Virus genome (UHGV): UHGV-0175824 | Length of the DNA: 16,817 nucleotides | DNA from: a virus | Reading direction: 5' to 3' (one strand) | The notes under the pieces: generated by a model | The model's database searches: none | What the model was told of the DNA's origin: nothing | What the model saw: the letters and a program-made list of their open reading frames with translations, nothing else | Program-made: the position numbers and the translations under genes | Shown: positions 5,417 through 7,499 of the stretch, in pieces | Layout: every line of letters begins with the position of its first letter | Position numbering within the stretch: the first letter of the stretch is position 1

Positions 5417-5608
5417 ATGACCGATACCAGCCTGATTCCTGAGAAAGAAGTGATGAACAAGCTCGGTGTTTCATCACGTCAGACAATCTGGAACTATACC
5501 AAACGGCACGGATTTCCGAAGCCAGTCAGAACCCACCCCAAATCATACCTTCGTGAAGCTGTTGAAGGGTGGATTCTTAACGGTGGCGTTAATCAGAAAT
5601 GCTCCTGA
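5417..5608 (+). CDS. alpA: AlpA-family phage transcriptional regulator / excisionase-like HTH protein
   Basis: 63 aa. GGAGAATTAAG before the ATG. Pattern …LGVSSRQTIWNYTKRHGFPKPV…YLREAVEGW… is typical of Phage_AlpA/Xis-like proteins. Lies next to the integrase. Confidence 0.8.
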   Translation: MTDTSLIPEKEVMNKLGVSSRQTIWNYTKRHGFPKPVRTHPKSYLREAVEGWILNGGVNQKCS

Positions 5609-6767
5609 TGTTCCAGAACAATTTATCAGCGTGAAGCTCATACGCTTTGCGCTGAGCCTCTATCCAATCGTGTTTATTGTATACGGACATTATCCCGCCA
5701 AGTTCATGACCGAGCATTCGCTCAGTAACATGAGGCTCGACATTCATCTCGGACAGACGTGTAACAAGCGTTCTTCTGAAATCATGTGTTCGCCAGTAAC
5801 CTAGATCCATCCCTCCCCTTATTCTATTTACGAATCGGTTGGCTGCAGCGATGCTGATCGGTTTGTTTATGTCTTCTCCAGGAAAAAGAACATCATTGTA
5901 CGTTGTCATGGCCTTTTCGAGAAAAGGCTTAATTTGTTCGAAGATTGGACGGCGGATAACATTACCCATCTTGCTATGCTCTTTCGGTACGGTCCATACG
6001 TTGTCCAGCAGGTCAAATTCTGTCTTTGTTGCCAGCCTAAGCTCTGAGAGCCTCGCCCCCCACAGCATAAGCATCTGATGAAGGAGCTTATTTGACGTAG
6101 ACGCACGGCTTCTTTCAATAGCAAGCCAAATCTTAGCCAGTTCGTGATACGACAGTACCCGATCCCCTACCTCAGCGCGGGAGCCGAAGTCCCTTGGCTG
6201 GATGCTCATAATTGCGCAACTATCTATCAACTGACGCCGCATGCACCAACTAATTGCTGATCTTAGTTGACTTAGCACCTGCCTTGCTCGGCGTGGATTA
6301 TCTTTTTCTTCTTCGGTAAGCAGGTCAACCCATTGCTTAACCGTGATAGAAGATGCCGGACGATTAGGGAAGGCGTCATGCATGCGCTTCATAACCGTTG
6401 ATCGGTAAAGTGCCTGGGTCTTTTCTCTGAGAGTTGTAGAGACGTAGTTGTCGAACCAGTAGTCGAGACACTGGGCGACCGTCATGGAGTTCTCAACCTT
6501 CTCTTCAAAATAAGTGCGTGGATCCGTTCCTGAGAAATAGAGCTTTCGCAAGTCAGCAGTGATCTGTCTGGCATCCTTCAAAGACAGGGATGGGTATCGA
6601 CCAAGCCCAAGTCGATTAGGCTTGCCATGCCAGCGATAGCGGTACTGGAACTGGATGACCCCCTTCGGTGAAATTCGTACGCTGAGGCCATCAGCATCAG
6701 CCACTTCTTGTGGGCCCGAATATGGTTTACCATAAATAGTACGCAGTTTTGTGTCGCTTATAGCCAT
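5589..6767 (-). CDS. int: Tyrosine site-specific integrase, P4-like family (N-terminal arm-binding domain plus catalytic domain)
   Basis: 392 aa. N-terminal DUF4102-like arm-binding region (…LSVRISPKGVIQFQYRYRWHGKPNRLGLGRYPSLSLKDAR…). Catalytic motifs ARLSELR, HDFRRT, LGH and a Tyr in SVYNKHDW. Confidence 0.93.
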   Translation of the reverse strand: MAISDTKLRTIYGKPYSGPQEVADADGLSVRISPKGVIQFQYRYRWHGKPNRLGLGRYPSLSLKDARQITADLRKLYFSGTDPRTYFEEKVENSMTVAQCLDYWFDNYVSTTLREKTQALYRSTVMKRMHDAFPNRPASSITVKQWVDLLTEEEKDNPRRARQVLSQLRSAISWCMRRQLIDSCAIMSIQPRDFGSRAEVGDRVLSYHELAKIWLAIERSRASTSNKLLHQMLMLWGARLSELRLATKTEFDLLDNVWTVPKEHSKMGNVIRRPIFEQIKPFLEKAMTTYNDVLFPGEDINKPISIAAANRFVNRIRGGMDLGYWRTHDFRRTLVTRLSEMNVEPHVTERMLGHELGGIMSVYNKHDWIEAQRKAYELHADKLFWNIRSISD

Positions 6768-6777
6768 AAATAATATT

Positions 6778-6820
6778 TGGTACGCTCAGAAATAATGGTT
6801 TGGTACACATCTGGTACACA
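6778..6820 (+). repeat. Arm-type repeat cluster 1 (TTGGTACGC, TGGTACACA, TGGTACACA)
   Basis: Direct repeats read in the sequence. Confidence 0.6.
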
Positions 6821-7049
6821 ATATCACATGGACAACAGCGCACAGTAAACAACTATATTTGACGTTCGTAGACATACTCAGGTGAAAAAATGGTTGTTTT
6901 TCGAGTTATAACAGACAGTTAATTAACTACAGTGGACAATGCTAGACAATGACAGACACAGATAAACAACCTACCTTCCTCTTTCACGATTACGCGCAAC
7001 ACCCCTGAGAACCGCCATGAACAAGGGTTTCATGATTTGTGATTTTAGT

Positions 7050-7070
7050 TTGGTACGCACTTTGGTACAC
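7050..7070 (+). repeat. Arm-type repeat cluster 2 (TTGGTACGC, TTGGTACAC)
   Basis: Direct repeats of the same motif as cluster 1. Confidence 0.6.
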
Positions 7071-7407
7071 AACACAATTTTCACTTCAGCGGGTAGTCAT
7101 CAAACTCACCATAACGAGCATCGTTGATGATGTATGTGATCACCACAAATATCACATCTGGACTAGTTCCGTCTTCATGCGCAGGTATCTGTTCACGCCT
7201 CCCTTTCTGCAAATCCTAAAGATGAGATTTTTGGGTTTTGGGATATCTTTTTATCCTCAGTTCTCTATCCATTCTACAAAGCAGTAATGAACCATCACCG
7301 TGTGATAGTGAGGCATCCGCTACGTTAAGCGCAGAGAAATGATGCAGTGGTGGTCGGACTGGATTGATGAAAAGGTGTAGCAACCAACATTGCTATATCT
7401 CAGATAG

Positions 7408-7452
7408 CACAAAGCCTTGCAATCCAGTGCAAAGCTTTGTGTGTTATTTTTT
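7408..7452 (+). terminator. Strong imperfect palindrome / terminator-like hairpin at the edge of the AT-rich cassette
   Basis: CACAAAGCCTTGCA-atccag-TGCAAAGCTTTGTG (13 of 14 bp pair), then TTTTTT at 7447-7452. A smaller hairpin TGCTAT…ATAGCA lies at 7391-7409. Confidence 0.4.
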
Positions 7453-7499
7453 ATGGCTATATAAATTATATACTGCCAGTGCTATCTAACATTTAAATA

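Follow-up and report, generated by a model that had tools for sequence, protein, structure and literature searches.

In the attP of phage lambda, the arm-type sites P1 and P2 lie on one side of the core and P'1–P'3 on the other, Int is heterobivalent, and int is transcribed towards the core. Phage 21 and e14 integrate in icd, and a phage-borne copy of the displaced end of the gene restores an intact ORF. In KplE1 (CPS-53) and P4, the P' arm sites and the int promoter overlap, and int is repressed by both Int and the recombination directionality factor (RDF) (PMC2951348).

For phages near-identical to the one analysed here, including the Stx2c-converting phage 2851 and the serotype-converting phage Sf101, the attP and its 13-bp core have been published and annotated before. 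The sequence CGTAATCGTGAAA was reported, with junction PCR, as the attP of Sf101 and is given in the same paper as the attP of phage 2851 as well (PMC4159516). The portions of the literature and annotations on 2851-type phages that were available to us name the core or a 147-bp 'putative attP' only, and not arm repeats; the term 'arm-type' is absent from the Sf101 paper (PMC4159516), and we found no paper in the searchable literature that refers to both sbcB and arm-type sites.

Overall organization of the attP region

We analysed a stretch of 16,817 nucleotides of a virus genome (UHGV-0175824), referred to as the window. Over int and attP, the window is ~98% identical in DNA sequence to phages 2851, Sf101, mEp234, HK544, and HK140 (98.9% over int in the case of 2851) and has the identical core, so that its att region is essentially no different from theirs. 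Outside this segment, the window is a P22/Sf6-like mosaic with tailspike and ejection proteins. By these matches, the source belongs among the P22/Sf6-like E. coli phages of the "2851 type". It differs from its 2851-type relatives in the cargo to the right of attP, which comprises a humD remnant, a DUF1796 gene, and a GDSL gene in the window, and humD, oacB, or tail-fibre genes in the relatives.

The original prediction placed arm-type sites for a P4-type integrase in a repeat-rich region with phage genes on both sides, in either the unintegrated attP arrangement or a junction elsewhere. The region is indeed bordered by early-left genes, xis, and int on the left and by cargo genes and the tailspike gene on the right. 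The arrangement is the unintegrated one, as the core (6982–6994) sits between the two clusters of repeats and equals the known attP of mEp234, HK544, 2851, and Sf101. We therefore read positions 6768 to ~7075 as the intact attP of a 2851-type, sbcB-integrating temperate phage, in which the repeats are predicted to be Int arm-type sites, and assign this reading a probability of roughly 0.85. Judged from sequence, the locus belongs to the known 2851-type attP family, with all the testable defining features present; that the five repeats serve as arm-type sites is a well-supported prediction.

The region had been drawn from 6768, one base past the int start codon (6767; minus-strand ORF 5589–6767), to 7460. 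Its left part, to ~7075, stands as attP, but its right part does not: positions 7081–7332 are a decayed HumD/UmuD-like gene and positions 7407–7455 a terminator-like hairpin. Therefore, the functional attP probably ends near 7075, not at 7460. The details added here are a five-site arm map conserved across a wide clade, a phage-borne replacement of the sbcB 5' end, and targeting of sbcB well beyond E. coli, none of which we found in the searchable literature. They leave the accepted view of how such sites work unchanged, and can be used to delimit prophage ends at sbcB, to design integration vectors, and to plan Int-binding work.

Core and integration target

When attP, the empty attB, the int-side junction, and the far-side junction are aligned, a single exact block of 13 bp is shared by all four, TTTCACGATTACG (= CGTAATCGTGAAA; 6982–6994). 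Polymorphisms change between the phage and the host type across this block, indicating that strand exchange takes place within the 13 bp. The same 13 bp are annotated as "attP, type 2851" in the mEp234 and HK544 records. Looser similarity between attP and attB reaches back to 6965; the resulting block (6965–6994), delimited by BLAST match ends and alignment, covers the sbcB codons around KQ..TFLFHDY.

In complete E. coli genomes, int-side matches end at window position 6994 and sbcB follows, and far-side matches begin at 6965 and are preceded by dacD. This int adjoins sbcB in at least 582 of 5426 complete E. coli genomes. The core codes for residues F-H-D-Y of exonuclease I, the product of sbcB. 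By these junctions, the integration target is the 5' end of sbcB. Alignment to the host chromosome, which had been proposed as a check on the identity of the core, thus yields the 13-bp block and sbcB, and places the core between the two clusters rather than elsewhere in the genome; a core elsewhere had been named in advance as one part of what would refute the prediction.

A tRNA 3' end, as in tRNA-targeting P4-type att sites, was considered as the core and rejected: ARAGORN finds no tRNA in the window, and the core matches the sbcB codons F-H-D-Y. An earlier search of the region for a tRNA end had come up empty, as is explained by a core that is the protein-coding 5' end of sbcB. As for core-type Int sites, attB has by eye a GTTTC-N8-GAAAC inverted repeat around the core; its right half is absent in attP, and we therefore make no claim for core-type sites.

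In E. coli O157:H7 MB9-1, Show KS 470-1, and STEC799, int, an intact attP-like junction, and the far end of another prophage (nleG7, tail fibre) are contiguous in the chromosome. This arrangement points to tandem prophages at sbcB with a regenerated attP between them.

Arm-type repeats

Five direct TTGGTAC(A/G)C repeats, in two clusters about 250 bp apart, had been noted. Four copies are exact (TTGGTACRC at 6777, 6800, 7050, and 7062, compared with 0.17 expected from shuffles in the window), and the fifth is CTGGTACAC (6811–6819; TGGTACAC at 6812–6819). All five match the 11-mer TYTGGTACRCW on the plus strand, compared with 0.02 expected, and five matches are reached in 0 of 200 shuffles; the pattern is post hoc, being derived from the same five copies, so the independent support comes from the sequences of relatives. 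The three-copy cluster (6776–6820) and the two-copy cluster (7049–7071) are separated by 229 bp, edge to edge. The int-side triplet is 162–206 bp from the core and the far-side pair 55–77 bp, and all copies have the same orientation. A motif unrelated to the core, TG(T/C)GTACCA(A/G)A when read in the orientation of int, is therefore repeated on both arms (3 + 2).

On the int side, the candidate site P'3 (6776–6786, plus strand) reads TTTGGTACGCT, or AGCGTACCAAA in int orientation, and its 8-bp motif ends 10 nt upstream of the int ATG. P'2 (6799–6809, plus strand; TTTGGTACACA) and P'1 (6810–6820, plus strand; TCTGGTACACA) correspond to conserved positions ~-39 and ~-50 from the int start. Across the core, the candidate P2 (7049–7059, plus strand; TTTGGTACGCA) is 55 bp from the core, and the candidate P1 (7061–7071, plus strand) is again TTTGGTACACA.

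Conservation of the sites among relatives

A genome scan gave 30 species-level relatives (40–99% identity), 24 of which lie divergently beside sbcB. Among relatives with 50–99% Int identity from Enterobacterales, Orbaceae, and others, a GTAC-centred triplet at approximately -50, -39, and -16 from the int start is present in 31 of 33 distinct upstream regions. The spacing within the triplet is 11 and then 23–24 bp; the spacers themselves diverge. The equivalent of P'3 is a GTAC-centred site at -14 to -17 in nearly all relatives.

The distal pair, located at -301 and -289 from the int start in the window, has equivalents as well. Three relatives with an intact attP, L076 (72% identity), SEN34 (60%), and L123 (56%), have two further sites at approximately -300 and -288, and L123 keeps them despite a different core. 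In ArgO145 and the Klebsiella phage Kp4877-4, the pair is at the far ends, and the same layout results once the two ends are joined. The pair is thus kept in all the relatives examined that have an intact or reconstituted attP. In a four-sequence alignment, the GTAC of all five sites is invariant, and the other invariant columns are scattered, with short runs at the core and at the int start. In accordance with the layout first claimed, the core lies between the clusters, the neighbouring Int has an arm-binding domain, and the five-site arrangement is conserved even where the rest of the att sequence of a relative has diverged.

The base after GTAC is identical across the proximal triplet in 27 of 29 distinct loci (AAA in 20, CCC in 7), loci that are phylogenetically related, so that these counts overstate the number of independent events. 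It is uniform over all five sites in the window, L076, and SEN34. Such concerted change within a locus is as expected for sites read by one co-evolving protein, and we take it as strong, if indirect, evidence for that role. A search for single residues found no column of the Int N-terminal domain that perfectly separates GTACC-type from GTACA-type loci. Across the window and loci L012–L040, residue ~40 of the arm-binding domain, which precedes FQ[YF]R, is Q, R, L, or N in GTACC-type loci and mostly T, A, or S, with some N, in GTACA-type loci; this correlation is loose and confounded by phylogeny.

In Photobacterium marinum (Int 49% identical, beside sbcB), three copies of GCGTCCAAA take the place of the GTAC-centred sites, and their spacing looks similar when judged by eye. 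Arm-site specificity appears to have changed in concert here.

Integrase, directionality factor, and proposed recombination

The int gene (5589–6767, minus strand) codes for a 392-residue tyrosine integrase of the P4/CP4 type and is transcribed away from the core. The protein matches Arm-DNA-bind_3 over residues 4–85 (Pfam, E 8e-18), Phage_integrase over residues 204–366 (Pfam, E 1e-16), and PHROG 1 integrase (E 3e-74), and is 99.7% identical in amino acid sequence to mEp234 Int. Its matches in the PDB are the N-terminal domain of a CP4-like Int (3jtz, E 2e-11) and lambda Int (1z1b and 5j0n).

A 63-residue xis/alpA-like RDF is encoded at 5417–5608 on the plus strand, convergent with int and overlapping the int 3' end by 20 nt. 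It matches PHROG 66, excisionase and transcriptional regulator (E 2e-8); its Pfam matches to Phage_AlpA and HTH_17 are weak and below cut-off, and its counterparts in mEp234 and HK544 are annotated as AlpA family. By gene order and strand, the module has predicted arm sites between the core and the int start, and an RDF gene that is not co-transcribed with int.

P'1–P'3 are confined to the 53 bp that precede the int start codon. A scan of positions 6700–7520 for sigma-70 promoters finds no consensus promoter for int. Promoter candidates picked by eye, such as an extended -10 at TGTGATATT, are inconsistent across relatives and were dropped. In addition, the exact IHF consensus WATCAANNNNTTR is absent from attP, and its one match with a single mismatch is no better than background; IHF sites are degenerate.

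By homology with lambda Int, the N-terminal Arm-DNA-bind_3 domain would dock on the five TG(T/C)GTACCA(A/G)A copies, and the core-binding and catalytic domains would act on the 13-bp core. As the sequences show, recombination with the identical 13 bp at the sbcB codons F-H-D-Y places the prophage in the 5' end of sbcB. Since the three proximal sites fall so close to the int start, Int bound to P'1–P'3 would probably repress int, as in KplE1 IntS and P4. On the same model, control of excision would lie with the AlpA/Xis-like gene, which converges on int and is transcribed as part of the early-left operon. Since neither an IHF consensus in attP nor a sigma-70 consensus promoter for int was found, the parts of this scheme that concern accessory factors and autoregulation are proposed by analogy only.

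No Shine-Dalgarno sequence is recognisable before the int ATG (...GAGCGTACCAAATATTATTT-ATG), and P'3 occupies the place of the ribosome-binding site, likewise in relatives. Int may have inherently weak translation, or occupancy of P'3 may block it.

The module resembles that of lambda in its heterobivalent-type tyrosine integrase with separate arm-binding and core-binding/catalytic domains (homologous to 1z1b and 5j0n), in the split of five arm-type repeats, candidates here, into 2 + 3 around a short core, and in its separate Xis. Unlike lambda int, int of the window is transcribed away from the core. The arm with three sites is the long arm in the window (162–206 bp), the arm motif is unrelated to that of lambda, no IHF consensus sites were found, and the target is within a protein-coding gene. 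With the KplE1 IntS/TorI and P4 Int/Vis systems, the module shares a P4-type integrase, the use of the region upstream of int as the att arm with the P' sites (candidates here), and an RDF gene that is transcriptionally uncoupled from int. However, KplE1 and P4 target tRNA genes (argW and leuX), whereas the window phage targets sbcB, and the P' sites of KplE1 share TAAA, unlike the arm motif of the window.

Alternative roles of the repeats

The TGGTACRC repeats could be read by the AlpA/Xis-like directionality factor or another phage regulator rather than by the arm-binding domain of Int. An excisionase-family HTH protein is encoded beside int, direct repeats in att arms are known targets of this class of protein (TorI, for one, has sites in KplE1 attL; PMC2951348), and conservation alone does not tell which protein reads a site. 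We regard this as very unlikely, because the 2 + 3 layout on both arms and the 11–12-bp spacing are as for Int arm sites, the phased TGTYYA direct repeats of the long arm (see below) are better RDF candidates, and Int has an arm-binding domain that needs cognate sites. Still less probable is that the repeats are purely transcriptional operators of int, with no role in synapsis or recombination. The position of the proximal cluster just before the int start fits an operator, and in KplE1 and other E. coli prophages, int genes of the same geometry are subject to negative autoregulation (PMC2951348). The distal pair, however, lies across the core, ~290 bp from the int start and beside the 3' end of a pseudogene, and its position relative to the core is conserved in relatives with 56–72% identity. 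Moreover, no promoter consensus was found, and the roles of operator and arm site coexist in known systems.

That the repeats are chance matches, or functionless leftovers of local duplication, is hardly credible. Bare GTAC is not enriched across the whole window (30 copies compared with 31 expected), and near-copies in the int coding region (6675–6682 and 6737–6744), considered as arm sites and rejected, are not conserved in relatives. Yet five 11-mers stand against the 0.02 expected, and dozens of diverged relatives whose flanks no longer align have sites in the same number, spacing, and orientation; these comparative data effectively refute chance or duplication. We therefore retain the five repeats as predicted Int arm-type sites.

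Phage-borne 5' end of sbcB

The attP carries a mimic of the sbcB 5' end (6949–7008, plus strand), which consists of an ATG and the codons MTDTDKQPTFLFHDY, as identified from translations and the RefSeq annotation of a lysogen. In the free phage, the ORF from 6949 is a 19-codon stub. The native sbcB starts with MMNDGKQQSTFLFHDYETFG, and sbcB of the lysogen, which is annotated as intact, with MTDTDKQPTFLFHDYETFG. In the lysogen VG38-53E1, the intact RefSeq sbcB starts at the phage ATG (6949), which falls within the second GACAATG copy. As read from these translations, phage bases 6949–6981 substitute for the lost start codon and first 11 codons, so that the sbcB ORF is intact in lysogens.

The situation resembles that of phage 21 and e14 in that integration occurs inside a protein-coding gene and the phage carries the replacement end. 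Phage 21 and e14 replace the 3' end of the gene, whereas the window phage replaces the 5' end including the start codon, and therefore replaces the promoter region as well. On integration, as the aligned junctions have it, the sbcB promoter, start codon, and first 11 codons are exchanged for phage DNA. The sigma-70 scan of positions 6700–7520 finds no consensus promoter for the sbcB' fusion.

As the incoming phage DNA would also be the long arm bound by Int and the RDF, lysogeny might put the host exonuclease I under prophage control, with occupancy of this arm by Int or Xis modulating sbcB' transcription. We consider this idea unlikely. If true, it would be a lysogenic conversion of a DNA-repair and recombination nuclease, and the targeting of the sbcB 5' end by the clade (24 of the 30 species-level relatives, all gammaproteobacterial) would reflect selection for rewiring rather than a neutral choice of site.

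Other repeats in the long arm

The segment between the two clusters had also been said to contain further short repeats, GACAATG and ATATCACAT. The two GACAATG copies are present (6935–6941 and 6945–6951, 10 bp apart), but the bare 7-mer is not significant (4 in the window compared with 3.0 expected). ATATCACAT likewise occurs twice (6821–6829 and 7149–7157; 0.20 expected), but its second copy is outside the segment flanked by the clusters; it falls within the HumD pseudogene remnant and is probably incidental. The first copy is directly adjacent to P'1, and many relatives have a conserved counterpart of it (CCATGTGATATTG or CCATGCAATATTG).

Both GACAATG copies belong to a set of secondary direct repeats, TRRACAA, at 6829, 6846, 6933, 6943, and 6963 (span 6829–6969, plus strand), with one more copy at 7018. 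Across the long arms of 32 relatives, we count 47 copies of the reverse complement, TGTYYA, compared with 9.8 ± 3.0 in shuffled sequences and 0 on the other strand; near the core, part of this signal is sbcB-like coding sequence. The TGTYYA repeats are often phased by ~10 bp, as judged by eye. The TRRACAA/TGTYYA repeats are possible candidates for the RDF or bending sites of the long arm.

In Klebsiella sp. BIGb0407, int is frameshifted and has stops, and ~12 tandem copies of CTGTTCA are found at the positions of P'1 and P'2; this 7-mer and the TGTYYA repeats share one motif family. The long arm of the window also has, midway along it and 54–65 bp from the core, a perfect 12-bp palindrome, AGTTAATTAACT (6917–6928). 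L076 retains only part of the palindrome (GTTAAC), and a dimeric or bending protein may bind there.

Sequences to the right of attP

The pseudogene remnant of a HumD/UmuD-like translesion-polymerase accessory gene (7081–7332, minus strand) was identified by tblastn with the UmuD-like protein of HK140. The match covers residues 46–129 of that protein (E 1e-24, 55% identity) and is interrupted by an in-frame stop. The ~45 N-terminal residues have been lost; HK140 carries an intact copy of the gene. The remnant is annotated as a RefSeq pseudogene in the lysogen strain p11B.

The terminator-like hairpin (7407–7455, plus strand) is an inverted repeat followed by a U-rich tail, with a fold of -19.9 kcal/mol (z -2.9); a scan for consensus terminators missed it. 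In a lysogen, it would come directly after the native sbcB promoter and 5' stub left orphaned by integration, and could shield the prophage from host read-through. Facing rightward, it would in the free phage halt early-left transcripts running across attP.

Between attP and the tailspike gene is a cargo block of low GC content (28–36%; 7500–8900). It contains an ORF for a DUF1796 putative papain-like cysteine peptidase (7500–8192, minus strand; Pfam E 7e-17, no PHROG or NCBIfam match) and one for a GDSL-like esterase/lipase (8088–8888, plus strand; E 2e-20). As listed, these ORFs share 105 nt on opposite strands; therefore, the esterase probably starts later. In Sf6, Sf101, and SEN34, the cargo slot holds O-antigen acetyltransferases, suggesting that positions 7500–8900 may be a surface-modification or moron cassette.
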